IMG/VR virus record: IMGVR_UViG_3300047157_000186
From: a virus
Taxonomy: Duplodnaviria; Caudoviricetes
Direction: 5' to 3' (one strand)
DNA: 64,000 nucleotides
This document shows positions 1 to 13,922 of this stretch, piece after piece; position 1 is the first letter of the stretch, and every line of letters starts with the position of its first letter. Both the position numbers and the translations under genes were made by a program. The notes below the pieces were generated by a model. The model was given only the letters and a program-made list of their open reading frames with translations, had not been told where the DNA came from and did no database searches.

Positions 1-1593
1 GAAGGTGTTGATATTGCTAGAGTTGTAGAAGCACAATGTCCAGGAGAATTTGAATTCCACTTTGTAGGTAATCAAGCTGAAAACTTTCAGAAATATTGGG
101 GACCAATTATGGAAAATCTACCCAGTAATGTCAAAGTTTGGGGTGAACAATCAAACGTAGAAACATTTATGAGTGCATGTGACGCATTTATGTTTAACTC
201 AACATGGGAGTGTAGTCCATTAGCATTGCGTGAAGCAATTGGGAGTGGATTAATTACATTCTCTAGGGACTTAGAACAATATAAGGACATGTTTACACCT
301 TACATAGTTCCATTCTCTAACGACCTCCATGAAAATGTTGATCAATTAATCAAAACACTCAAATCATCAAAGGATCAAGGAAAAAATATCCCAGATGATG
401 ATCTAGAACGCTTCAAGCAACAACATATAGAGTGGTACCAAACCTGTTTAGAGACCCCGAGAGCCAAACCAATAGCCAAAGCTCCTCGATGGAGATTAGA
501 GTACATTGATGGCCCACGCATAACATGTGAAGAAGTAGGTGACGAGCCACTGAGAGCCGAATTCTGGGACGGAGAGGATCTGATCTACAGTGTAGATAAC
601 ATGAAACGCGGCCATTGGTATCAGCCATCAAGACACTGGTGGACAGAGTGGACTGTAAAGATTTTGAGTAACGATCGACTGATTTACGAAGAGACACTAA
701 CACTTGAAGACCAAGAGCTGACCATAGAAATGGCGAGCTCATCACTCGGAGACACCATATCGTTTATGGGACAGTTACACGCAGTGATGTATACACACAA
801 GCCAACACGATTATATGTGAAGACACACAAACCCTGGCTGTTTGATCATGCATGGTACTTGGAAAGAGGTGTTGAATTCTTAGACTGGTCAGAGCCTACA
901 AAGGGAGCGCTAATGACCGTTGGAGTCTTTTATACCATGGAAGAGCCTTGGAAAAGACACGAGCACAAATACGATTGGAGAACTATAAGTCTGGGTAAAA
1001 TCGCTGCTGATAGAATTGGAGTTGAGTATCAAGAACAGAGACCTAAGTTGGCATCTGAATTCTTGAAAAAGACCTCAAACAGCGCGCGAAATCCAAGTTT
1101 AGTTATAGCAACTCAATCAACAGCACAAGCCAAGTATTGGAATAATCCAACTGGTTGGCAAGAGGTTATAGATTGGGCAAATAAAAATAATATTTCCGTT
1201 TCCCATGCTTCGAGCGAAGGTAGTGAATTGACTGGCATCGAACAGTTGCCAGAATCTTTAGAAGAGGTTGCTAAAGCAATTAATAACGCGGACATGTTTA
1301 TTGGAATTTCCTCTGGCTTGTCTTGGTTCGCTTGGGCACTTGGAACTAAAACCTGCATTATAAGTGGTTTTACTGATCCTTATGTGGAATTTAAAGATGC
1401 TATCTATATTAACAATCATCAAGTATGTCATGGTTGCTGGGGATGGGATACATTTGATAAAGGTGATTGGAATTGGTGTCCAGCATGGAAAGGAACTAAA
1501 AGACAATTTGAATGTACAAAACAAATTGGATCAGATAGAGTAATAGATGTAATAAATAATCACCTTCACGGTGTATTAATAGAAAATAAATAG
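1..1593 (+). CDS. 5'-truncated fusion of a GT-B (GT4-like) domain and an autotransporter O-heptosyltransferase-like (Aah/TibC, BAHT) domain
   Basis: Frame is open from base 1. Contains AFMFNSTWECSPLALREA, SSLGDT, STAQAKYW, FIGISSGLSWFAWA and the Cys cluster CHGC...WCP...FEC typical of BAHT enzymes. Confidence 0.75.
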   Translation, partial: EGVDIARVVEAQCPGEFEFHFVGNQAENFQKYWGPIMENLPSNVKVWGEQSNVETFMSACDAFMFNSTWECSPLALREAIGSGLITFSRDLEQYKDMFTPYIVPFSNDLHENVDQLIKTLKSSKDQGKNIPDDDLERFKQQHIEWYQTCLETPRAKPIAKAPRWRLEYIDGPRITCEEVGDEPLRAEFWDGEDLIYSVDNMKRGHWYQPSRHWWTEWTVKILSNDRLIYEETLTLEDQELTIEMASSSLGDTISFMGQLHAVMYTHKPTRLYVKTHKPWLFDHAWYLERGVEFLDWSEPTKGALMTVGVFYTMEEPWKRHEHKYDWRTISLGKIAADRIGVEYQEQRPKLASEFLKKTSNSARNPSLVIATQSTAQAKYWNNPTGWQEVIDWANKNNISVSHASSEGSELTGIEQLPESLEEVAKAINNADMFIGISSGLSWFAWALGTKTCIISGFTDPYVEFKDAIYINNHQVCHGCWGWDTFDKGDWNWCPAWKGTKRQFECTKQIGSDRVIDVINNHLHGVLIENK

Positions 1594-1594
1594 A

Positions 1595-2485
1595 ATGAGT
1601 AAAAGAGCAATAGTAACAGGAGGTGCAGGTTTTATTGGCACACATTTAGTAAAAAGACTTTTAAATCTAGGATGGCAAGTAACTGTTATAGATAATTTTA
1701 GTACTGGATCTATAGACAACATTAAAGATTTAGGGTGTGACTTTATAGAAGAACACATACATAATCCAATTATTCAAACATGGGAAATACAACATGATGC
1801 ATTATTTCATCTTGCGGCTCCTGTTTCTGTTGAAGAAAGTTTGAGTAATCCTAGTAAATACTATGAAGAAATTGTTGGAGGTACAACTAATATGGTTGAG
1901 TGGTCTTTAAAACAAGGTAACAAAAATATTATTATCGCATCTACTGCTGCAATTTATGGAGACTCAGATAATTTACCATATAAAGAATCTGGTGCAATTA
2001 ATCCTATTAGTCCATACGCAAGAGCAAAAAGAATGACTGAATTACTATTAGAAGATGAATTTAAAACTAATCCCTTTAAAGGCACTGCATTAAGATTCTT
2101 TAATGTTTATGGAGAAGGTCAAAGAAATGAAGGTGGTTATTTAAGTGCTGTTCCTATTTTCTTAAATCAATTTGAATCTTTTAAACCAATTACTGTTACT
2201 GGTGATGGCCAACAAACCAGAGATTGGGTTTATGTTGGTGATGTGGTTTCTGCGTGTATTGATGCCTATAATAGTACTGATAATGACGGAATTAAAATAA
2301 TGAATGTTGCATCAGGTCAGGAAACTAGTGTTATGGATTTAGCCGAAGCTTTTGGTGGAATTATTACACATATAGAAGAAAGATTAGAACCTAAAAGATC
2401 AGTAGCAGATATTAGTAAAATAAAAGAGACATTAAATTGGAAACCCGAAACCAACCTACTATCATGGGTAAAACAAATAAAATAA
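1595..2485 (+). CDS. NAD-dependent sugar epimerase/dehydratase (extended SDR)
   Basis: GGAGFIG, YxxxK (YARAK), LRFFNVYG, GDGQQTRDWVYV. Confidence 0.9.
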   Translation: MSKRAIVTGGAGFIGTHLVKRLLNLGWQVTVIDNFSTGSIDNIKDLGCDFIEEHIHNPIIQTWEIQHDALFHLAAPVSVEESLSNPSKYYEEIVGGTTNMVEWSLKQGNKNIIIASTAAIYGDSDNLPYKESGAINPISPYARAKRMTELLLEDEFKTNPFKGTALRFFNVYGEGQRNEGGYLSAVPIFLNQFESFKPITVTGDGQQTRDWVYVGDVVSACIDAYNSTDNDGIKIMNVASGQETSVMDLAEAFGGIITHIEERLEPKRSVADISKIKETLNWKPETNLLSWVKQIK

Positions 2486-3129
2486 TGAACTACAAGATTT
2501 TTTTTATTGCAGCATTTGTTGCATTTAGCACATTAATTAGTGCACAAGAAGATGAATTAAATATCATAGATGTAAAAACAGATATCTACGAAATTACATA
2601 TTCACAAACATATCAACAACCATTAATGGTAAAATATACTGTTATTTGTGATGCAACTGCACCATCATATCCTAGACATGGCATAAGCTTTACAAAAGTA
2701 GAAGGTATTAAAACATCATCTTCTTCAGATTATAGTGATAATGTATGGGATAAAGGTCACATGGCGCCAGCAAATACATTCTCATGTAAAAAGGAATGGT
2801 TAGAAACTACATTTACTTATACTAATTGTGCATTACAACATCAGAATTTAAATAGAGGAGCGTGGGCTGCATTAGAAGGATTTGAAAGAGATTTAGCTGC
2901 AATATACGATGACATTGAAGTTGATATTACTATTTATTTTTCAGAAGAATGGACTACTAATTCAGATCCAGCAAGAATACCTTCTAATTTTATTAAGACT
3001 CTATCTTGGATAGAAGATGGTGGAAAACATAGATCAATCTCCTTTGATTTTCCAAATGAAAACACTAAAGGTAAATCCTTCTGGTCATTTAAATTAAAAG
3101 ATGGAGATTGGAACGGTAAAGAAGAATAA
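2485..3129 (+). CDS. Secreted DNA/RNA non-specific endonuclease (NucA-like)
   Basis: Signal peptide (ISA|QE) from the ATG at 2485; DKGHMAPA and NCALQHQNLNRGAW motifs. Confidence 0.85.
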   Translation: MNYKIFFIAAFVAFSTLISAQEDELNIIDVKTDIYEITYSQTYQQPLMVKYTVICDATAPSYPRHGISFTKVEGIKTSSSSDYSDNVWDKGHMAPANTFSCKKEWLETTFTYTNCALQHQNLNRGAWAALEGFERDLAAIYDDIEVDITIYFSEEWTTNSDPARIPSNFIKTLSWIEDGGKHRSISFDFPNENTKGKSFWSFKLKDGDWNGKEE

Positions 3130-3130
3130 T

Positions 3131-3367
3131 ATGAGAAAACTATTAATAGCATTTGGTAATCTATTCGACATAGGTTGGTGGGCAAATAAAATCAATACTA
3201 AATTAGGTCTATATAAATGGGCTAAAAAGTCTAGATTTCGTAAATGGCAAGAAGGTCTAACAGGATGGAAATTCTGGGCATGGCAAATAGTAGGTGGAAT
3301 TACATTTATAATCATTTTTGAATTTATATTTAATAAAATAGGCATAACAATGTTACCATGGAAATAA
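3131..3367 (+). CDS. Small membrane protein
   Basis: Trp/Lys-rich with a C-terminal hydrophobic helix; start moved to MRKLL. Confidence 0.6.
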   Translation: MRKLLIAFGNLFDIGWWANKINTKLGLYKWAKKSRFRKWQEGLTGWKFWAWQIVGGITFIIIFEFIFNKIGITMLPWK

Positions 3368-3765
3368 TGAAAAAAGGAGTAATTTGTGGAAATTTTGATG
3401 TAATACACCCAGGATATATTAAAATGTTTAAAGAGTGTGCTGCTAATTGTGATTGTTTAATAGTTTTATTACATACTGATCCATCAATTGAAAGACCCCA
3501 TAAACTGAAGCCAATATTATCTGTAGAAGAAAGAACAGAAATGTTACTAGAATTAAAATCAGTTTGTGGCGTACATATTTATACATACGAAGCACAGTTA
3601 TTAGATCTACTTAAAATGGGTGAATTTAATGTAAGATTTCTGGGAGATGATTATATTGATAAACCATTTACTGGTGATAATTTAAATATACCAATTCATT
3701 ATTTAAACAGAGATCACGGTTGGTCTACAACAAAATTCAAGAAACTTATAGCTAAAACAGTTTAG
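3367..3765 (+). CDS. Cytidylyltransferase-family nucleotidyltransferase (TagD/HldE-II-like)
   Basis: GNFDVIHPGY (HxGH variant), KPILSVEER, LGDDY, WSTT. Confidence 0.8.
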   Translation: MKKGVICGNFDVIHPGYIKMFKECAANCDCLIVLLHTDPSIERPHKLKPILSVEERTEMLLELKSVCGVHIYTYEAQLLDLLKMGEFNVRFLGDDYIDKPFTGDNLNIPIHYLNRDHGWSTTKFKKLIAKTV

Positions 3766-4121
3766 TTACACTCTCCGTAGTTTGATAAAAAGGTAAGCAG
3801 ATCCTCTGCTCCTACAATTCCATCTCCATCAAAATCACCTTCACATTCTGTTTGAACACACGAAGCATAATTAGGATGTTCTGTTAATAGAGGAAATACA
3901 TAACCATCTCCATTTAAAACGAAAGCAGTACCGATATCTGCACAGAAGATTATAGTATAACCTCCAGCTGGCAAGCCAAAATAATGTGCACCACCATCAC
4001 AATCTTGATATTGAAAGTTAGTCCATTTTTCAGCACCAACAGAGGTAAAGACATGTTGATTGCATTGTGCTACCGTATAAAAAGGTAGAAGAAATAGTAG
4101 GGAAATAATTAATGATTTCAT
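3762..4121 (-). CDS. Secreted Cys-rich protein with a C-terminal dockerin/EF-hand-like motif
   Basis: Signal peptide (TVA|QC); C-terminal CEGDFDGDGIVGAEDLLTFLSNYG. Confidence 0.7.
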   Translation of the reverse strand: MKSLIISLLFLLPFYTVAQCNQHVFTSVGAEKWTNFQYQDCDGGAHYFGLPAGGYTIIFCADIGTAFVLNGDGYVFPLLTEHPNYASCVQTECEGDFDGDGIVGAEDLLTFLSNYGECN

Positions 4122-4122
4122 G

Positions 4123-5401
4123 TTATCTAAATATTGTTATGTGTCCGTGTCTTTGGAATACTTCTGTAGATCCAAATTTCTTAGCGTAAAATGTATATGT
4201 GTAAACTCCATCAGATAGCATAGTGATCACCACCATTGACACTACCATCCCAATAAGGATATGAATCATAATAATCACCCTTACCAGAGTAGATCATGTC
4301 TCCCCATCTATTAAATATTTTAAATTCCACATCTACCCAACAATCTAAATCATAAACCATTTTCCATGTATCATTTAAGCCATCATTATTTGGTGTAAAT
4401 GTATTTGGAAGATAAACTGAAGTCCAATCTGGGCAAACTAAACCAGGATCATCAATACATTCTAATCCAGTTTCACAATCAATAGTAATATACTCATAAA
4501 TAGTATCTGTTAAGAATTCATATACAATCACTTCAACAGTATCGACAGTTGTGATAAAAAGAGTGTCAGTAACATATTCTGTAATGTACTCAATTTCAGT
4601 AACAGTATCAGTAATAAAGACTTCAACAAAAACCTCGACATCAACATATACAGTATCAATAGTTTCTACATAAAGAGTATCAGTAATAAAATTGTCTACA
4701 TATTCAATAATAGTATCAGTTACATAAAGAGTATCAATAGTTTCTATGTAAATCGTATCAGTAATGTATTCGATTATAGTGTCAGGTACACAAGGATCAT
4801 AGCAAACAGCTATTCTATTATCATCTATATTAATATCAGGATATGTCTGTGTCTGATTAAAACTATTACCAACAGTCCATCCGTTATCTGGAAAATCATC
4901 ATAACCTGCAGTTTGAGAAAGATTAATCTGCCATATTACTACTTCCCAACAATATCCCTCAAGGGGCGTGGCTAAAATACACTCCCAGGCAAATGGTGGA
5001 TTTATATTAATAGTAACGACATCTCCAGTTTCCCAACCACCCCAATTTGTAACATTAGTATATGACCAACCTGGATGAAATGTTGTAGAAGTACAATCTG
5101 TGTTTTCTCCTAAGTCTTCTCCAGTGATTTCATTTACATAATGAATACCAAAAACAAGATGAGATACATTTTCATTATTATTTACGGAACTAGATCCATT
5201 GCCATCGCAAGTATTTTCATCCCACTGAGTAAATTCATTACATCCACAGTTTTCTGCATTAACAAATTCAATTACAAAAGAATGGTCATCTTCTGTTGTG
5301 ACAGGTGGTGTTTGACTTATGAGTGTTAAATCACAGGTTTGCGCATATGCGCTAGTAACTAGAAAAAGCCCCAGAAAGGCTATCATTGAGTATTTCAGCA
5401 T
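4123..5401 (-). CDS. T9SS type B cargo (gliding-motility-associated CTD); one frameshift near 4218
   Basis: Likely start MLKYSMIA at 5401 with SAYA|QT; DT(I/L/V)Y repeats; YLPNTFTPNNDGLNDTW...IFNRWG...YWDG, continuing after a +1 indel as DGVYTYTFYAK...GHITIFR*. Confidence 0.85.
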
Positions 5402-5430
5402 TTGTAAAAAAAAAAAGTGTTTAAGAGTTC

Positions 5431-5469
5431 TAGGCCGAGAAGTTAAGTGTCGCCGTTGCGACTGGCCTA
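5431..5469 (-). promoter_or_regulatory. Structured 5' leader of the T9SS-B gene
   Basis: TAGGCC/GGCCTA outer stem enclosing a GTCGC-AACG-GCGAC hairpin; GC-rich in an AT-rich context. Confidence 0.45.
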
Positions 5470-5472
5470 ATG

Positions 5473-5502
5473 TTATATATCTTCTAGAATATAGATATAT
5501 AA
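5473..5502. promoter_or_regulatory. Back-to-back GATATATAA motifs (putative divergent late promoters)
   Basis: Minus copy at 5473-5481 and plus copy at 5494-5502, between divergent genes. Confidence 0.5.
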
Positions 5503-5573
5503 TATAATAATAAAAAAAATATGTTAGTCTAGCCTCTTCCGATAAATGTATTGTGCCTGACTTGATGTAGTAT

Positions 5574-6767
5574 ATGAGATACTTCAAATTATTGCTCTTA
5601 TGTTTTATCCTGGCGACACCTATCGTCCATGCACAAACTACTACAGTAAACTTAAGGTCACTTAAGACTCATTATGGTGGGAATCAATCAGGTCAATATT
5701 ATACAGGTAATGCTAACTCGCACTCAGAATTTGACGCTATGGTTAATCTTGCCGATGGCGGTACTACACTCTATACATGGGGACCTATAGATATAACAAG
5801 TTACCAAGGCCCAAGAGGTGGTAATCATACTCCTTATCAACTATGGAATCCACCAAGATGGGGCAGTCAAAGATATGCAATTATCTATTCCGGTTGGTTT
5901 AAACCTAACAAATCAGGTACATATCGATTTAGAACTTTCACAGATGACTCACATGAGTTTATGATTAAAGGTATTGGTAAGACTAATGATATAGTTACTA
6001 AACATTATGGTTGGAATACATGGGCTTATGGTACGGCAACCTTAGATAAAGATACATGGTATGAGTTTGAATATAGAATTCAAAATTTTGGTGGTATAGG
6101 TGCTGCAAATTTTCAATATGAAATACCTGCTAACTATAATACAGGTCAATTTAATCAACTCAGTCCCAGTCATCCATTTGCAGAATGGTCTACTACTGAA
6201 CCTATTGACCCTATCACAGCATCTGGTTATATTAAAGGAGCAGAAGAACAAGGTATTGCAGGACAAACAGTTTACCTAAAGACACAGAATAAAAACCAAG
6301 TAGGTTTCTCATATACAACACAAGAAACTACAACAACAGATTCAAATGGATATTATTCATTTAATACTACGTTAGATTACAACGATTACGATTTTACAAT
6401 AGACATCGCTCCGACAATAGGAACGCTTACAACTTCAGATATTAACTGGTTTCAAGACAGATTACTATCAGATACAGTTAGTTCTAAAGATTATTGGAGA
6501 CTTGATGTAAATAATACAGGTTCATTTTCTGCCTCTGACATTTATCTAATGCACCAGAAGAGACAAGGTAACATTTCCAGTTACCCTGGTGGAGGACAAG
6601 AAATATGGAACACAAATTCCTGGCAAAACCCGACCATTTGGCCGGCAGTTGCTGCGGATTCAGACGACAAATCACAACTCTCCGGATACGGAGCATGGTC
6701 CCTCTTTGATTTAGCCAATGGAAATCAAACAACTTTCTATGTAATAAGAGCGGGTCATAAAAACTAA
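5574..6767 (+). CDS. Secreted PA14-domain protein with a dockerin-like C-terminus
   Basis: IVHA|QT; YSGWFKPNKSGTYRFRTFTDD (PA14); LTTSD...LDVNNTGSFSASD repeat pair. Confidence 0.75.
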   Translation: MRYFKLLLLCFILATPIVHAQTTTVNLRSLKTHYGGNQSGQYYTGNANSHSEFDAMVNLADGGTTLYTWGPIDITSYQGPRGGNHTPYQLWNPPRWGSQRYAIIYSGWFKPNKSGTYRFRTFTDDSHEFMIKGIGKTNDIVTKHYGWNTWAYGTATLDKDTWYEFEYRIQNFGGIGAANFQYEIPANYNTGQFNQLSPSHPFAEWSTTEPIDPITASGYIKGAEEQGIAGQTVYLKTQNKNQVGFSYTTQETTTTDSNGYYSFNTTLDYNDYDFTIDIAPTIGTLTTSDINWFQDRLLSDTVSSKDYWRLDVNNTGSFSASDIYLMHQKRQGNISSYPGGGQEIWNTNSWQNPTIWPAVAADSDDKSQLSGYGAWSLFDLANGNQTTFYVIRAGHKN

Positions 6768-6783
6768 AAATAATTAAAAACAA

Positions 6784-7878
6784 ATGAAATTAAAAAACAT
6801 TCTTCTAACACTGGCTTTAGCTATCAGTACAATGACTGTCTTCGGGCAGACGACTGCGCCTGATGCAACAAAGCCCTATGTTATTTTTGATTCAACGTAC
6901 ACTTTAGAATCTACTGGTTCGAGCTCAAACACTGAGTTTGATATTTACTATGATAACACGTCTGGTAATGCAGTTAAAGGTATTCAGTTTTCGTTTAATT
7001 ATGATAACACAGTATTTGATGAACCAACAGTAGCATATAACAATACATCTGGCCCAGCTGGATATTTGTCGTATGATGTTGATTCAACAAACGGAGTAGT
7101 AAAAGTAGTATGGGTTTATACTGGAGCATCTACCACTTTCGATATGATTGCTGGTAATATGTTTACAGTAAACGCACCTTTTCTATCAAATTACACAAAC
7201 GGAGCAGTTGCTGACGTAGATTTTACTACTGATCTTACTGCTTATTATGTAAAGGCTGATGGAACAGATGGAGCTCTAGGTACACAAGATAATGGTGGTA
7301 ACTTTATAGAACCTGCATTTGATTATGTAGCAACTATCTTAAATAGTGGAACAAATCCAGCTGAATCTATTCCTGTGATTTTACAGAAATCATCAGATGG
7401 AAATACTTGGACAGATGTAACTACAGTAACAACGGCAGCAGACGGAACAGCAACATTCTCAGAAAGCTTAGACCAATCTTACTGGCAAATTAGACTTAAG
7501 ATTGCAAGTGGACTAGATGCAAGTACGGCACTATCAACTGCAGATGCTAATATGATCGCACAAATTGCTGCGGGAGTACAATCAGCCTCTGGTATTCAGT
7601 TCTATACTGCAAATCCAAATCAAGCTACTGGAATTACAGCATCGGATTCTTACTTAGTATTCTCTAGATTAGCACAAGGTAACTCAAGTTACGCTTCTAA
7701 TCCAGATGTATTATTCTTTACTGAAGCACAATATAATACTATTAATGCTTCAAGTTCAGATCAGTCAAGTTCAATTCCAGGACTATCAGTATTTTTATCT
7801 CCACAAATTAATGGAACTACCACTGGTAATTTCTACCTATTAATATTAGGTGATGCCAACGGTACAGGTTTAAATTAA
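6784..7878 (+). CDS. Secreted cohesin-like plus dockerin-like protein
   Basis: VFG|QT; VKGIQFSFNYDNTVF (cohesin-like); LSTADANMIAQ...GITASDSYLVF (degenerate dockerin pair). Confidence 0.65.
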   Translation: MKLKNILLTLALAISTMTVFGQTTAPDATKPYVIFDSTYTLESTGSSSNTEFDIYYDNTSGNAVKGIQFSFNYDNTVFDEPTVAYNNTSGPAGYLSYDVDSTNGVVKVVWVYTGASTTFDMIAGNMFTVNAPFLSNYTNGAVADVDFTTDLTAYYVKADGTDGALGTQDNGGNFIEPAFDYVATILNSGTNPAESIPVILQKSSDGNTWTDVTTVTTAADGTATFSESLDQSYWQIRLKIASGLDASTALSTADANMIAQIAAGVQSASGIQFYTANPNQATGITASDSYLVFSRLAQGNSSYASNPDVLFFTEAQYNTINASSSDQSSSIPGLSVFLSPQINGTTTGNFYLLILGDANGTGLN

Positions 7879-7879
7879 T

Positions 7880-8617
7880 ATGAGGAATATACTACTAACA
7901 ATATTAGTATTGTTCACCACATGTGCACAATCTCAGGTCGTATTTAACGTACCTGAGATTGATGTGCCTGTTAGTGAGTATATTAATCTGCCTGTAGAAA
8001 TTGAAACTTCAGGCGAAGATGTTGGTAGTTTAGAATTTGCATTGAAATATGATCCAGACTATTTAGAGTTTGTATCGATTACTGTGACACCTAAAGCTCA
8101 AGAGTGGTTAACATATACTATGGACTGGGAAGGTGAAACTGTTAGATGGGGCGGTTATGACGCTTCCTTCGGTAATTTTACTATAATTAATACAACAGAA
8201 TTATTTACGGTAAGATTTAGGGTTACTAATCAAGATTGGGACACAATTCCAATTACGATTGGTAGAAAAACAGCTGGCACAGAATTAGGATGGGACATTG
8301 ATGTTGAAAACACAGATGGTTACGTGAATAAACGATCAATGCCATTTGATACTAGGCCAACTGATGGTATTTATGGAATTGTTTATCCAGTTCCAACAAA
8401 AGGTCCAATTACATTTGACCTGACAGTACCAGACAATGGCGATTATATTGTCAGAGTATTAAACTATGGTGGTTCAGAATTTTTAAAAGAAAGTAAAAGA
8501 TTCTTTGCAGGATGGGTACAATTTCAAATGGATCTATCTTCATTACCACAAGGTGTTTATCTCTTACAAGTTACTAATGGCCAATTTGTTAAAACATTTA
8601 AAACCATAAAAAAATAA
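7880..8617 (+). CDS. Cohesin-like protein with a T9SS type A CTD
   Basis: AQS|QV; VGSLEFALKYDPDYLEF; C-terminal VYPVP...DLSSLPQGVYLLQV...KTFKTIKK. Confidence 0.8.
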   Translation: MRNILLTILVLFTTCAQSQVVFNVPEIDVPVSEYINLPVEIETSGEDVGSLEFALKYDPDYLEFVSITVTPKAQEWLTYTMDWEGETVRWGGYDASFGNFTIINTTELFTVRFRVTNQDWDTIPITIGRKTAGTELGWDIDVENTDGYVNKRSMPFDTRPTDGIYGIVYPVPTKGPITFDLTVPDNGDYIVRVLNYGGSEFLKESKRFFAGWVQFQMDLSSLPQGVYLLQVTNGQFVKTFKTIKK

Positions 8618-8624
8618 CTTAATA

Positions 8625-8816
8625 ATGAGAAAGAAGATGATTGCACTGTCGTTAAGTTCAATACTACTATTTGGATGTGGAGCTACAAAGCCTACTTCAG
8701 ATGGATGTTGCGAGAAAAAAGTACTAACACAAAAAGAAGCTGATGAGAAGATCATGAATGGTCTACTATTTACATTAGTAACTTATATAATACTTAGTAC
8801 ATTAAAAATAAACTAA
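8625..8816 (+). CDS. Small lipoprotein with a C-terminal hydrophobic helix
   Basis: Lipobox LFG-C; C-terminal TM-like segment. Confidence 0.6.
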   Translation: MRKKMIALSLSSILLFGCGATKPTSDGCCEKKVLTQKEADEKIMNGLLFTLVTYIILSTLKIN

Positions 8817-8821
8817 GAAGA

Positions 8822-9085
8822 ATGTCAGATAAAAAAGAAAACAAATTCTTTTCTGAAATTAAAAATCAAATCATTGCCGGCGTTGGCTTAGTCATCGCCG
8901 CTGGGTTTGGTATCTTTATTACTAACATGGAAGGTTGGTTATCTCCAAAAAAGGAACCTACTCCAGTTGTAGTACAAGATAGTATTCCGGCTCAACCACA
9001 AATTATTATTAATAATATAGTGGAAAAGAAGGAAGCACCAAAAGTGATTGTTAAAGAAAAGAAAGAAGACGAAATAACATGGTAA
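8822..9085 (+). CDS. Single-pass membrane protein
   Basis: One TM segment followed by a Pro/Val/Lys-rich tail. Confidence 0.65.
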   Translation: MSDKKENKFFSEIKNQIIAGVGLVIAAGFGIFITNMEGWLSPKKEPTPVVVQDSIPAQPQIIINNIVEKKEAPKVIVKEKKEDEITW

Positions 9086-9783
9086 GATTATTTACACTGG
9101 TCTTTTTGTTAGTTACCTTTACAGTTAATGCTCAAATAGGTAAAACTGAGACTGAAGACTATAAAGCTAGTTTTGAACAAAAAGCAGACATCGATGAGGT
9201 ATCTGACTATATGTTAGATTATCAATTGCCTATTCAAGTATTAAATATAGGCTTTACACCAGAACTATATGAATTCTATCCAGAATTGAGAGAGAATAGA
9301 GTTGGTTTAGGTGTTAGTAATATTACTCTGTCTTATTTAGAATGGACAGATAGATTTCTATTTACAGAAGATAAAGAAGAAATCAAACAGAGAATGGTTA
9401 AGCAACATAAAGCTGCAGCAAAAGGTATATCGGCAAATGATATTAAAGTTGTAGGTAATGTTGTGTTAGCAGAGTATTTTGTATATGTAGAAATATATGA
9501 CTATTCAGTATCTGAGGAAGAAGAAGTTACAGTTGATGGAGTAAAGACTGTACTAAAAACTATTATTGGTATGCAAGTAAGATTTGTTAATGCTGAAACT
9601 GGAACTATTTTCACAGGCAGTGGAAGTGGTGAAGCAGTCACGATTAAAAGATCAAAGATTGGTGAAGACAATGTTGTCAAATTCAATCAATCAACAATTG
9701 GTATTGCAACTAAGAAAGCCCTAGAATCTGGAACTGCTCGTATCGTAAAAAGAATGATAAAGCGTGGGATATTTGAAGAATAA
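9079..9783 (+). CDS. CsgG/HfaB-like secreted protein
   Basis: VNA|QI; GLGVSNITLSYL..TDRF...; IGMQVRFVNAETGTIFTGSGSG; C-terminal helix IGIATKKALE. Confidence 0.7.
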   Translation: MVRLFTLVFLLVTFTVNAQIGKTETEDYKASFEQKADIDEVSDYMLDYQLPIQVLNIGFTPELYEFYPELRENRVGLGVSNITLSYLEWTDRFLFTEDKEEIKQRMVKQHKAAAKGISANDIKVVGNVVLAEYFVYVEIYDYSVSEEEEVTVDGVKTVLKTIIGMQVRFVNAETGTIFTGSGSGEAVTIKRSKIGEDNVVKFNQSTIGIATKKALESGTARIVKRMIKRGIFEE

Positions 9784-11137
9784 AATAATAACAGTTCTGT
9801 TATTCTTAGCACCACTAGTCAGTTATGGCCAGTGGTCTTATACGTTTACAGATCCATGTACTCTGAATCAACAAACAATTCAAATGGGTTCAAGTGATGA
9901 GATTGCCTTAAATTATTTTGGCAATGTTCAGACATTTACACAACCAGATTTTACAGATGGTACTTTTGATGCATGGATGAATTTAGTTACTCAGGCTAAT
10001 TCTGCGAATCCATGTCAAGCGTGTAACTCAAGTTATTACAAATAATACAAATGCTATAATAGTTCAAAATACTATTACAGTAATTACAAATATAATGAAT
10101 GTGTTAGGTGGAGATATGTTACCACAAGCACTTTCATCATCAGGTGTTCCAGTAGCAGAGGCTATTGATAATGCAAACTAAAAAAGAAGAAAAAAAAGAA
10201 AAAGAAGAAATCAGACGAACAAAGTTCTAACTCTAATAAAGAATCTGAAGATTCTAATAGTGAATCTAATAGTTCTGATAATAAAAATAATGAGAATAGT
10301 AATTCAGAGACTAGTTCGGAACAATCCAATGGCTCTGGTTCTAATCAAACTAGTGGTGGACAAGGTAATACAGGTGGAAGTGGCACTTCAACAGGTAGCG
10401 CTGAAACAAAAACTGAAGATGAATCAAAAGAAGGCGCTTTATCTATGTCTTTAGCTAATTCTGTTTCAAATGCAGTAGATGGTGGAGAATCAGATAATAA
10501 AAACAGAGGTTCTTTAATTGCATCAGGTGATATTGTAGTTATTGACAACCAAGATAACTCAAATGGACGTCAAGTAAAAGTAGTAGGTTCTATTACTAGT
10601 GCTAATACAAAAAAGAGCAGAGTTCAAGGAGCACTATTTACATATACAACTGTAACTAATGATTTTAGTTTAACTTTCTATAAATCATGGATTAATCCGA
10701 ATAGAACATTTAATCTAGTAGGTGCAAATACTACAATGACAGATTTTAATCAAAATCATTTAAACACAACTACTGTTTTAGAATCATTTAAGTTTGGTAA
10801 GAAGAAATTCACTGGAATGGCTGGTTTAAATTTTACTATAGGTAAATTAGGTAAAAGAGAACTACAAAATCTATCAGCAGTTACTGGAGTTCATAGAAAC
10901 TTTAGAGTTAGTCCAAAGATTACAACATCGGCTTTAATTCTAGGAGTCTATTCTCCATTCACACAATACTATGAAGGTCAATGGTGGGATCCAGGTGTTC
11001 TTATAGTTCCATTTAGTTCTTGGGATATACAAATTACAAAAACATTTAAATACAATATCAGTTTTACTGGAGTTTGGCAATCAGGTGGAAATGCCCTCAA
11101 CTATCAAATACTAACTGGTGGTAAAATTAGATTCTAA
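9764..11137 (+). CDS. Secreted protein with a Ser/Asn/Gly linker and a probable C-terminal beta-barrel; two frameshifts (near 10020 and 10180)
   Basis: Fragments 9764-10045 and 10445-11137 are bridged by open frames (VTQVITNN..., SDEQSSNS...); alternating beta pattern ending GGKIRF. Confidence 0.6.
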
Positions 11138-11138
11138 T

Positions 11139-11579
11139 ATGAAAAAGCTATTAATACTCCTATTCTTAATTCCAACTATGTTATTCGCACAAGATTGTTA
11201 TACTGTTAAGAATGTAACAACAGAAGTTGAAATGGAAGAGATCAGCCAAAGAAGAATTACATTTGGTATTAAACAAATGATGGAAGATGTTATTTCAGAC
11301 AAGTATGATTTATGTTTAGATGGTAAGCCAGTTGAAGTTAAAGTAACTTCAATAGAAGCACCAACGACTGGAATATCGATAGGACCGTGGACTAAAGTGA
11401 GTAAAAAAACAATAGTCACTTTACTAATCTATATGGATGATAATGTAATTGAAGTTGAAGGAATGGCTAAATCTACAGTTAAAGCTACATTCATCGATTT
11501 ACAAGATGAGAACTTACCTTTTAATAAGACAGTATTTGCGTCTGCAATCAAGAAAGCTATCGAGAAATCTCTAAAATAG
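11139..11579 (+). CDS. Secreted protein, possibly a minimal CsgG-like paralogue
   Basis: LFA|QD; the C-terminal FNKTVFASAIKKAIE parallels FNQSTIGIATKKALE of the 9079 protein. Confidence 0.6.
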   Translation: MKKLLILLFLIPTMLFAQDCYTVKNVTTEVEMEEISQRRITFGIKQMMEDVISDKYDLCLDGKPVEVKVTSIEAPTTGISIGPWTKVSKKTIVTLLIYMDDNVIEVEGMAKSTVKATFIDLQDENLPFNKTVFASAIKKAIEKSLK

Positions 11580-12252: not shown

Positions 12253-12543
12253 ATGAAAAAAGCAATATACTTTATATCTTTATTAATATTAACCTCATGT
12301 TCTGAAGATTCTATTACACAACAAGAAACTAAAGAAGAAAATGGTTACAAAGTCACAATAGTAGAATTTGATGGATGTGAATATGTAAGTTTTAAAAAGA
12401 ATTGGAGTACCAGTTCAAGTATTACCCATAAAGGTAATTGTAAAAATCACAATTATTTAGATGGAAGATCATTTAATGATAAAGTCGAAGCTCTTAGAGA
12501 AGAAAGTGGGCTTATCGACAATCTACTAAACAATATAAAATAG
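12253..12543 (+). CDS. Lipoprotein of unknown function
   Basis: Lipobox LTS-C; EFDGCEY motif. Confidence 0.65.
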   Translation: MKKAIYFISLLILTSCSEDSITQQETKEENGYKVTIVEFDGCEYVSFKKNWSTSSSITHKGNCKNHNYLDGRSFNDKVEALREESGLIDNLLNNIK

Positions 12544-12936
12544 ATGGAGTTAATAAGTACGCATCCGGTCAAGAAGTCCGACTTGGGATTTCATGGCAAT
12601 CTTTTTGGTGGAAAATTATTAGCATGGGTTGACGCAGCGGGAGCTGCATATGCTTCCCAAGTATGCGATACACCAAGAATGGTAACAGTTCTCATAGATA
12701 AATGTGTTTTTAAAAAACCAGCAAAAGAAGGACATCTCCTTAAAATATACGGTGAAGTAGAAACAATAGGAAACTCATCTGTCACCCTAAAAGTTGAAGC
12801 AAGATCACATAATGTATACAACGGTAAACAAGGCATTATACTTGCAACACATATTAAATTTGTAAGAGTAGACGAACAAGGTGAAGCAATTTCTGTCAGT
12901 AGTAGAGTTAGAGATAAATATATGGGTGATATATAA
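12544..12936 (+). CDS. Acyl-CoA thioesterase (HotDog fold)
   Basis: DLGFHGNLFGGKLLAWVD...IGNSSVTLKVEA...FVRVD. Confidence 0.9.
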   Translation: MELISTHPVKKSDLGFHGNLFGGKLLAWVDAAGAAYASQVCDTPRMVTVLIDKCVFKKPAKEGHLLKIYGEVETIGNSSVTLKVEARSHNVYNGKQGIILATHIKFVRVDEQGEAISVSSRVRDKYMGDI

Positions 12937-12969: not shown

Positions 12970-13263
12970 ATGAGCAATACAGAAAAGTTTCTACAACTAT
13001 TTTCAGATTTTGATATGGTAGTAGTAGAAAAAACAGTAAACAAGCCAAAAAAGACGATTAAGGCAACGTCCAGTATTAACGCTAATCAAACGAGAAGCGA
13101 ACTAAAAAAAGCTTTAAAAAGATTGACAGAGGAATATAGCAGAGCTAGAAAATCCTTTAAACAAAATAAATTAAGCCGTCAAGAATTATTTGATTTTGAA
13201 TGGAGATTATTTGAAATTCAAGAAGAAATCAATAGATTAGATGACGAGGCAACGACAGAATGA
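12970..13263 (+). CDS. Hypothetical coiled-coil protein
   Basis: Heptad-like charged helices. Confidence 0.6.
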   Translation: MSNTEKFLQLFSDFDMVVVEKTVNKPKKTIKATSSINANQTRSELKKALKRLTEEYSRARKSFKQNKLSRQELFDFEWRLFEIQEEINRLDDEATTE

Positions 13264-13922
13264 GATTAGAATCACTTAGTACATTTATTATAGATAGATT
13301 GGTTTTTAGAAAAGAACCAAAAGATAAACATGTAATAAGATTAAGTGCAACACAAGATAAAGAATGGTTTAAATCATATTCAGAAGATGCACCCATAGAA
13401 TTACCACCTTCAAATTCATCTGAATTAGTAAAACTAGAATTATTAGATATGGCAATAGAATGTGCCAGTACAAAAAAGCCAGCAAAATTAGAACATAAAT
13501 ATGACGATGATTTTATGTGGGCATTTAAAGAATTAGTTAAATCTAATGATTTACAATGGTCAAATAAATATTTTAAATATTTGATCAAAGCAGCTGGTGA
13601 TAGAATAATTAGATTAAAATATAAATACAATAGACCAAGACCATACCAATTAGCACCATATCATGGTGTAGATATAAAGGTATTCGGTTCTGATACAGCA
13701 AAAACTCCATCATTTCCATCAGGTCACACTGCCCAAAGTATATTAGTGGCAAAAATAATAGGTGATGTATACCCCCAATTAAAAGAAGATGCTATGAAAA
13801 TAGCGGATGATGTTTCTAAATCAAGAATAGTAGGAGGTCATCACTTTAAATCAGATATTGAATTTGGTGAAAAGATAGGAATGTGGTTGTATAATAACTT
13901 AGTTAAAGAATGGAAGAAATAG
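13260..13922 (+). CDS. PAP2-family phosphatase
   Basis: KYKYNRPRP, PSFPSGH, SRIVGGHHFKSD. Confidence 0.9.
   Translation: MRLESLSTFIIDRLVFRKEPKDKHVIRLSATQDKEWFKSYSEDAPIELPPSNSSELVKLELLDMAIECASTKKPAKLEHKYDDDFMWAFKELVKSNDLQWSNKYFKYLIKAAGDRIIRLKYKYNRPRPYQLAPYHGVDIKVFGSDTAKTPSFPSGHTAQSILVAKIIGDVYPQLKEDAMKIADDVSKSRIVGGHHFKSDIEFGEKIGMWLYNNLVKEWKK

Follow-up and report, generated by a model that had tools for sequence, protein, structure and literature searches.

Some phages place single small proteins in the outer membrane of the host and so alter its cell surface, as Llp of T5 and Lom and Bor of lambda do. In pelagimyophages and in methylophage Melnitz, csgG and csgF genes occur without the curli subunits, and roles in uptake, sibling capture and lysis control have been proposed for them (PMC9004378). 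Here we describe a contiguous block of exported-protein genes at positions 3762-11579 of a 64,000-nt stretch (the window) of the IMG/VR virus record IMGVR_UViG_3300047157_000186, an Immutovirus-like myophage of Bacteroidota. The block combines a cohesin protein that carries a sorting domain of the type IX secretion system (T9SS), dockerin-like and lectin-like proteins, a divergent CsgG-family protein and an outer-membrane barrel protein, and we consider it somewhat more probable than otherwise that it is a phage-encoded host-envelope module remodelling the surface of the infected cell.

The DNA of the block matches only four records (three isolates) of Flavobacterium phage vB_FspM_immuto, at ~67% identity. 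This phage (genus Immutovirus, ~160 kb, host Flavobacterium sp. LMO8, Baltic Sea) carries the counterparts of the block as gp13-gp19, with 45-60% protein identity to the window; they are annotated as a C-type-lectin protein, a hypothetical protein, a "cohesin domain-containing protein" and four further hypotheticals. A scan of IMG/VR with g8 gave 39 related loci, and each block gene was compared by tblastn with 40 related loci. Below, g1-g11 denote the block genes in the window, and labels such as L002 and L006 denote related loci, L002 being the closest. Pfam matches were reported up to E ≤ 1, and family membership was decided on the curated cut-offs of Pfam and NCBIfam. The block is laid out as follows:

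3762-4121 (-): g1, accessory 119-aa exported protein with one calcium-binding (Ca) loop/helix
4123-5320 (-): g2, type B T9SS cargo; main frame 4211-5320, last 30 residues at 4123-4215
5473-5502 (both strands): inverted pair of GATATATAA, candidate phage promoter element
5574-6767 (+): g3, signal peptide, PA14-like domain, Ig/CarboxypepD_reg-like domain, dockerin-like loop and C-terminal tail
6784-7878 (+): g4, core adaptor with cohesin-like, transthyretin-like and degenerate dockerin-like parts
7880-8617 (+): g5, core protein with a cohesin and a T9SS type A sorting domain
8625-8816 (+): g6, 63-aa lipobox open reading frame (ORF) in a private insertion
8822-9085 (+): g7, 87-aa bitopic membrane protein
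9079-9783 (+): g8, divergent CsgG-family protein
9764-11137 (+): g9-10, autotransporter-like gene in three frames (9764-10045, ~10026-10181 and 10178-11137)
11139-11579 (+): g11, 146-aa exported protein, by profile a short paralogue of g8

The conserved core of the block (6784-11579) is syntenic in 39 IMG/VR loci and in six contigs from metagenome-assembled genomes (labelled Flavobacteriaceae, Flavobacterium, Sediminibacterium and Bacteroidetes), and the synteny g4-g5-(g7)-g8-g9/10-g11 is also found in the cultured phage immuto. By tblastn, the order of g4, g5, g8, g9-10 and g11 is kept wherever the contig is long enough, at identities from ~25% to 99%. The cohesin/dockerin-like arm and the CsgG-family/barrel arm lie adjacent, co-oriented and tightly spaced in each related locus long enough to show them. 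The variable parts are g3 (full-length only in closer relatives), g1 and g2 (rare) and g6 (private), and genes past 11579 were not conserved with the block in the related loci. An earlier note on this DNA, made from the sequence alone, had described a surface-assembly module of about ten contiguous genes: the contiguous exported block was recovered and its core genes are present in all informative loci, while g1, g2 and g6, being private or rare, do not belong to a single unit.

Reading the translations by eye for a hydrophobic leader followed by Ala, Gly or Ser and then Gln, we found Sec signal peptides with Gln at the predicted +1 position in eight proteins (g1, g2, g3, g4, g5, g8, g9 as the first piece of g9-10, and g11), the number given in the earlier note. 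Signal-peptidase-I substrates of Bacteroidota typically carry a leader that ends in this way (the Q-rule). The leaders and sorting domains support the view that the block proteins are envelope proteins which would rely on the Sec system and the T9SS of a Bacteroidota host.

The clearest assignment is that of g5, which contains a cohesin domain (PF00963, 2.8e-9, 37.8 bits against a gathering score of 24.1) and, at its extreme C-terminus, a type A sorting domain (TIGR04183, 8.1e-8, 32.1 bits against 23; PF18962, 2.5e-7, 31.3 bits against 27). It had been proposed as a type A cargo with a cohesin-like domain, and both family cut-offs (PF00963 and TIGR04183) bear this out. The gene is conserved in each locus long enough to show it, and its domains suggest a scaffold exported to the surface through the host T9SS.

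Its neighbour g4 consists of a signal peptide, a cohesin-like N-domain, a transthyretin/Ig-like middle part, a dockerin-like module and a conserved tail ending in GDANGTG. The window copy has no Pfam Cohesin match. For this suggested second cohesin-like protein the likeness comes from the orthologues in L027 and L029, which align with profile positions 11-121 at 1.9e-4 and 22.1 bits, below the cut-off of 24.1. When g4 was compared by profile with the PDB, two scaffoldin cohesins (E ~0.05) were among the top matches, and transthyretin-like proteins were matched at 0.014; hhalign of g4 against g5 was weak (E 0.075). The clade L030-L039 has g4 and g5 joined in a single ORF of 633-643 aa. The dockerin-like module of g4 is canonical in the divergent clade (Dockerin_1 in L031, 1.6e-3, 19.1 bits) and degenerate in the window.

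The third member of this arm, g3, shows Pfam matches to SdrD_B (3.7e-5), CarboxypepD_reg (1.5e-4) and Dockerin_1 (0.2; 12.3 bits against 22.9), and its C-terminal half (Ig-like and dockerin-like) shares 29% identity with the C-type-lectin protein that phage immuto encodes. Among the language-model neighbours of its N-domain, the ten nearest Atlas clusters with a family are all PA14 (score 0.94, 195 shared features); Pfam gave no PA14 match (PF07691) at E ≤ 1 and the PDB profile search returned nothing for g3, so that its description as a PA14 protein stands on the Atlas neighbours and not on Pfam. Other loci carry a different N-terminal head on a g3-type C-terminal part, and in the divergent clade a g3-like protein of 556-767 aa is encoded 3' of g11. 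This suggests that g3 may be a swappable lectin subunit, with a PA14-like head here and a C-type lectin in phage immuto.

Three dockerin-like C-termini had been pointed out in the block. Across the six-frame ORFs of the whole window, a strict Ca-loop pattern has just two matches, g1 and g3, and the loop of g4 is degenerate; none of the three proteins combines the two tandem ~22-residue loop/helix repeats of Dockerin type I (PF00404) with a score above the Pfam cut-off. Since the modules of g1, g3 and g4 are sub-threshold and their loops single or degenerate, we call them dockerin-like and do not count them as dockerin members. As family likeness, the cohesin and dockerin-like modules are supported by the profile matches and the Ca-loops. 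Among the hidden Markov models that the earlier note had named, those for cohesin, TIGR04183 and TIGR04131 matched above their cut-offs, and those for Dockerin_1, PA14 and, directly, CsgG did not.

Complex prediction for the g5 cohesin with g4 residues 235-364 gave a median score of 0.59 (0.59, 0.62 and 0.58) against 0.00 for the best control, passing a mark that was reached by 58 of 80 solved complexes and 2 of 110 mismatched pairs, and falling in a range (≤0.60) that held only 7 of those 80 solved complexes together with both mismatches. Contacts agreed between runs by at least 95%, and the partner had a predicted local distance difference test (pLDDT) value of at least 77. The prediction weakly supports binding of the g5 cohesin to the dockerin-like part of g4; because solved cohesin-dockerin complexes exist, the pass may reflect likeness and not binding. 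Recruitment of subunits without a C-terminal sorting domain by cohesin-dockerin contacts, as had been suggested for this block, gains weak support from this score; the dockerin-like modules of these subunits stay below the dockerin thresholds.

The second arm is centred on g8, the most conserved gene of the block (mean column identity 75% in the alignment; 99% identical to L002). Its relatives form >6,600 clusters at 90% identity in public metagenomes, some of them named CsgG by the Joint Genome Institute (JGI), and it gave the sole, marginal PHROG match of the block proteins. A direct scan of g8 with Pfam CsgG (PF03783) was negative, as it was in two related phage records, and a PDB search with a narrow g8 profile gave no relevant match. 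The profile of g8 orthologues retrieved 278 representatives among 1.84 billion proteins; distant full-length homologues (E 1e-11 to 1e-24) score 24-44 bits with Pfam CsgG, above its cut-off, several matching LpoB too, and a joint profile bridging the two matches E. coli CsgG in the PDB (4e-6 over 184 positions), with no other family significant. By this route g8 qualifies, on sequence profiles, as a divergent member of the CsgG family, and the CsgG-like protein of the earlier note was thereby recovered. Fold matches of the g8 model include CsgG, FlgT and LpoB; Foldseek of the model against the PDB gave none at E ≤ 0.001. RAD52 and ribosomal S5/dsRBD-type folds, which tie with CsgG at Z ~7-8, were set aside, and we read the tie as a common beta-beta-beta-alpha arrangement. 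In the window and its close relatives the g8 leader ends in a signal-peptidase-I site (VNA before Q) and has no lipobox Cys, and a lipobox is present in g8 of the L031/L035/L039 clade and in all bacterial g8 homologues.

Directly upstream, g7 encodes a bitopic protein with a Pro/Lys-rich tail ending in Trp, and its 3' end overlaps the start of g8. Orthologues were found in 20 of the 40 loci (L002-L021, the closer half; 41-90% identity), and gp16 of phage immuto keeps both the position and the architecture. At the other end of the arm, g11 has two invariant Cys and aligns by hhalign with g8 (E 1.6e-4) over 62 C-terminal columns, in the C-terminal third of g8, and its Atlas leads are clusters named DUF4410, LptE and CsgG. 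On this alignment g11 is a short paralogue of g8, which had been raised as a possibility.

A similar pairing occurs outside phages. The five bacterial high-GC contigs for which DNA is available each encode a g8-like lipoprotein (~230-240 aa) and a shorter paralogue matching both the g8 and the g11 profiles (for one protein of L048, L048_3, 1.4e-15 against g11 and 4.7e-12 against g8):

L047, 1336-3832: bacterial CsgG-like pair
L048, 3-1296: bacterial CsgG-like pair
L049, 2587-3944: bacterial CsgG-like pair
L050, 5474-6684: bacterial CsgG-like pair
L051, 148-2036: bacterial CsgG-like pair

The paralogue adjoins the g8-like gene in four of the five and lies one gene further on in L047. Two of the contigs also encode an exported protein, between the pair in L047 and after it in L051, that looks beta-rich or barrel-like by eye and matched neither the barrel profile nor any other profile used. 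In L047 a Ser/Thr kinase precedes the pair. The recurrence of the paired paralogues in all five contigs gives the CsgG pair the look of an old cellular cassette, unstudied so far, that the phage would have inherited from bacteria.

Between g8 and g11 lies g9-10. Behind the signal peptide, its product has a domain of ~90 aa with two invariant Cys, then a linker that contains poly-Lys and is rich in Ser, Gly and Asn, and finally a 12-strand barrel ending in Phe. In the structural model, the N-domain (residues 24-114) and the disordered linker are followed by 12 long strands at 272-477, with a pLDDT of ~70-80 in the barrel. Foldseek placed the NalP translocator first (3.4e-5), alongside NanC/KdgM, intimin, EspP, EstA, BrkA and Hbp; intimin/invasin-type barrels were thus among the structure matches, and those in AFDB were autotransporter and DUF481 barrels. 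The model has the type Va layout of signal peptide, N-terminal passenger and C-terminal 12-strand barrel. We found no match to Pfam Autotransporter (PF03797) or to any other Pfam or NCBIfam family, and the place of a pore-spanning linker helix is taken by a short low-confidence helix at 254-260, before the barrel. Since both a family signature and a confident linker helix are missing, we describe g9-10 as autotransporter-like in architecture and do not file it as a member. Its N-terminal domain had no PDB relative by profile and none in the Atlas.

A beta-barrel ending in Phe had been expected here as a protein separate from the signal-peptide ORF; the barrel is upheld by the model, and the two are parts of one gene. 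The ORF 9764-10045, the middle piece at ~10026-10181 and the barrel ORF 10445-11137 all match a single immuto protein (gp18, 474 aa), and one uninterrupted ORF (385-566 aa) encodes g9-10 in 39 of 40 related loci, the contig of the fortieth stopping before the barrel. Relative to L002, the window has a +1 break near 10021 and a -4 break in an A/G run near 10183. A further frameshift, of 1 nt near 4213-4217, interrupts the type B sorting domain of g2 and puts its final 30 residues in another frame; in L002 both pieces lie in one frame, in an ORF of 557 aa. Near-identical contigs from four seawater metagenomes (one of them with a single other letter in ~900 bases) all lack one base at 4213-4217 and show a net -1 at 10016-10025, so two of the three breaks are private to this record; for the third (10176-10212) the metagenome contigs end at the A/G run, and the comparison therefore covers two of the three. 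The frameshifts would be either private mutations or errors in the record. The A/G-rich run at 10181-10210 (AAAAAGAAG x3.3), the site of the second g9-10 frameshift, encodes the poly-Lys tract that opens the linker; its length varies among relatives and metagenome assemblies break there, and slippage with phase variation is possible.

The accessory genes g1 and g2 lie on the opposite strand. At its C-terminus, g1 has a single canonical Ca-loop/helix that resembles those of dockerins or EF-hands, with Cys on either side; in Pfam g1 matches only EF-hand entries (E 0.1-0.25), and its sole orthologue among the 40 loci is in L002. For g2, tblastn found L002 and a fragment in L015. The type B cargo proposed for g2 was recovered above cut-off (CHU_C, PF13585, 1.4e-11; TIGR04131, 38.6 bits against 35) as an incomplete domain: the CHU_C/Bac_Flav_CTERM match covers profile positions 3-57 of 85, the remainder lies in the other frame, and the domain is intact in L002 and in the seawater contigs. 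No PorP/SprF-like partner was seen among the block proteins (no PorP_SprF match at E ≤ 1), and the host may supply one. Before the sorting domain of g2, at 4400-4700 (-), stand about ten short strand-like repeats rich in T, D, I, Y, E and V (of the TDT-x-Y-x-E type), which may form a beta-solenoid or ribbon stalk. On the opposite side of g5, g6 has a lipobox (LFGC), in keeping with the lipoprotein once proposed, and its C-terminus is hydrophobic. The insertion of ~180 bp in which g6 lies is missing from all relatives (no tblastn match in the 40 loci, and the L002 alignment skips 8626-8803), so g6 is not a shared gene, and it is uncertain whether it is a genuine one.

The back-to-back motifs reported between the divergent genes were confirmed as copies of GATATATAA at 5473(-) and 5494(+), ~70-80 nt upstream of the start codons of g2 and g3. 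The window holds 8 copies where 2.1 are expected, 7 of them on the + strand, and one of 100 shuffles reached 8. Four other copies (12928, 17549, 36172 and 42853; all +) stand 25-50 nt upstream of ORF starts, often after GT, and one of these precedes a 1577-aa fibre-like gene. The copy upstream of g3 is kept in L002, L006, L007 and L015. From this placement, GATATATAA would be a promoter consensus of this phage genome, possibly a late one. A scan for sigma-70 promoters and terminators was uninformative, promoter-like sites being rarer than in shuffles.

These findings suggest the following course of events. During infection of a Bacteroidota host, probably late, the products of the module would be exported by the host Sec system. 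In the display arm, the type A sorting domain of the g5 cohesin would hand this protein over to the host T9SS for export to the cell surface, and cohesin-type sockets would receive the dockerin-like modules of both the adaptor g4 and the lectin subunit g3, leaving the infected cell or its debris with glycan-binding proteins on display. The outer-membrane arm would consist of the inner-membrane protein g7, the CsgG-family pair g8/g11 and the autotransporter-like barrel g9-10; the CsgG pair may form an outer-membrane complex that anchors subunits without a sorting domain or helps them across. The most likely purpose would be to alter what the infected cell binds. Binding or masking host-type surface glycans could bring about superinfection exclusion or shield progeny from debris; alternatively, the module may attach the cell to particles or to neighbouring cells. 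The roles raised in the earlier note (receptor masking, adhesion to particles and defence against grazers) gain no support from the analyses made here.

A number of observations weigh against this reading. The structural model of g8 is poor (pLDDT 59), and the g8 segments aligned to the membrane hairpins of CsgG are shorter and acidic, one of them Glu-rich; given these segments and the missing lipid-anchor Cys in this clade, a g8 pore is doubtful. No csgA-, csgB-, csgE- or csgF-like genes were among the Pfam, NCBIfam and PHROG matches of the block, from which divergent versions could escape. The dockerin-like modules stay below the Pfam cut-offs, with one good Ca-loop and not two, and with a degenerate loop in g4 of this phage; g3 and g4 themselves carry no sorting domain; and the barrel gene is interrupted in this genome. 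The bacterial relatives of the CsgG pair come without cohesin genes, so that the two arms may be functionally independent. This last point bears on how the arms belong together. That the whole block is one machine, in which the CsgG pair and the barrel form an export or anchor device taken from a bacterial cassette and the T9SS mounts a cohesin-dockerin lectin array, is a stronger claim that we consider rather doubtful; if it were true, the phage would control what the dying cell or its debris stick to, for instance in the exclusion of rival phages or the capture of neighbouring hosts. We hold it to be unlikely that two unrelated modules merely travel together, a T9SS cohesin/dockerin/lectin set and a CsgG-pair and barrel cassette with a job of its own, such as a channel or an envelope-stress device. 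Bacterial g8 relatives adjoin a g11-like paralogue and sometimes an exported beta-rich protein, never cohesin genes, and no computed link joins the two arms, but these remain adjacent, co-oriented and tightly spaced in all informative loci, across ~30-99% protein identity.

A lysis or permeability device, in which g7, the CsgG-family pair and the barrel span the envelope and time or assist lysis or pass molecules, would have precedents in the lysis-regulation role proposed for csgGF of pelagimyophages and methylophage Melnitz, likewise without csgA/B (PMC9004378), and in the overlap of g7 with g8, as in coupled envelope partners. Yet no lysin or holin is adjacent in the window, the cohesin, lectin and T9SS parts are left unexplained, and the hairpin-equivalent segments of g8 are short and acidic; we give this reading a small chance. 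Slimmer still is the prospect that the module is decaying or non-functional in this phage, its accessory genes being lost. The three frame-breaking indels in g2 and g9-10 point that way, two of them missing from near-identical environmental contigs, but the rest of the core is undamaged and strongly conserved (g8 at 99% identity to L002), the indels are possibly record errors, and wherever another related locus covers g2 or g9-10 the gene is unbroken. That the block encodes virion parts, such as Ig-like or cohesin-like decoration or fibre proteins, we regard as highly improbable: Ig-like and lectin domains are common on virions, but cleavable Q-rule signal peptides, a T9SS sorting domain, an outer-membrane barrel and CsgG homology all speak for the envelope, and no block protein resembles the fibre genes of the window. 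Compared with all other window ORFs, the block proteins had no paralogues and no link to the fibre genes. Of these readings, a host-envelope module acting on the cell surface remains the one we favour.

Among the ORFs of the window are large ones on the + strand; these include fibre-like proteins with many tail-fibre PHROG matches and a phage-type glycosyltransferase. The fibre region had no megablast match in the phage collection. Upstream of the block, at 2437-3129 (+), lies a DNA/RNA non-specific endonuclease gene (PF01223, 2e-23) with a signal peptide of its own ending in AQ before E, the product of which is probably exported. In phage immuto (gp12) and in L036, the gene immediately 5' of the lectin gene is a homologue, and on account of this position the endonuclease may belong with the envelope module. 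The ORF at 1-1593 (+), running off the window start, resembles an Aah/TibC autotransporter O-heptosyltransferase (TIGR04414, 3.1e-57, 194 bits against a cut-off of 200), with a GT4-like N-part, and is followed by a short-chain dehydrogenase/reductase (SDR) epimerase and an RfaE-domain-II-like nucleotidyltransferase (1595-2485; 3358-3765). Its distance from an autotransporter-like gene with a Ser-rich linker is ~2 kb. We tested the Aah/TibC-like enzyme as a possible conserved partner for g9-10 and rejected it: it is absent from nine related phage records, most of them fragments, and for that reason we claim no link between the two genes. On the 3' side of the block, 12253-12543 (+) is a 96-aa ORF with a lipobox (LTSC) that is not conserved with the block, and 12544-12936 and 13260-13922 encode a 4HBT thioesterase and a PAP2 phosphatase; the thioesterase recurs in L031, L032 and L034, at other places.

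By the run list, the seawater metagenomes with near-identical copies of the stretch come from at least 14 studies. The hosts are marine and freshwater Flavobacteriia, key degraders of algal polysaccharide, of which such phages are common predators. If the proposed reading is true, redecoration of the cell with T9SS-exported cohesin-dockerin lectins would be a new kind of host takeover, with possible effects on particle attachment, aggregation and phage-phage competition. The locus also points to an unstudied bacterial cassette of two CsgG-like lipoproteins with an exported beta-rich neighbour in some contigs. A cultured pair exists in vB_FspM_immuto and Flavobacterium sp. LMO8.

No paper dealing with cohesin, dockerin or T9SS cargo of flavobacterial phages came up in a full-text literature search, and the combination of these modules in Bacteroidota appears to be undescribed. 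Each part has a known counterpart from which it departs. With the cellulosome, the block shares a cohesin on a surface-targeted protein, an adaptor with cohesin-like and dockerin-like modules, and varied heads on a common dockerin-like tail; it differs in having lectin-like heads and no enzymes, a T9SS sorting domain instead of an S-layer homology (SLH) domain or sortase signal, dockerin-like modules that have one good Ca-loop and score below thresholds, and in being encoded by a lytic phage. The homology of g8 to E. coli CsgG (PDB 3x2r, 4uv3 and 6lqh) extends over ~180 residues with the order of secondary structures kept, whereas g8 is ~45 residues shorter, has no lipobox in this clade and is paired with a short paralogue. 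With type Va autotransporters (NalP, EspP, EstA), g9-10 shares the order of parts and the terminal aromatic residue, but its passenger is only ~90 residues long and followed by a disordered linker, and the 12-strand porins NanC and KdgM match the barrel about equally well.

The closest phage precedent is the csgGF of pelagimyophages (HTVC008M group) and Melnitz, which, like the present phage, are large marine myophages with a CsgG-family outer-membrane gene and no curli subunit genes. Here, in contrast, the host phylum is Bacteroidota; g8 is too divergent for a direct Pfam CsgG match; the partners are a short CsgG paralogue and a 12-strand barrel protein in place of CsgF; and a T9SS cohesin and dockerin-like lectin proteins are always encoded next to these genes. 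Unlike the single small proteins Llp, Lom and Bor, it is a block of at least six conserved genes, with T9SS export signals and modular binding domains, that this phage would bring to the surface of its host.

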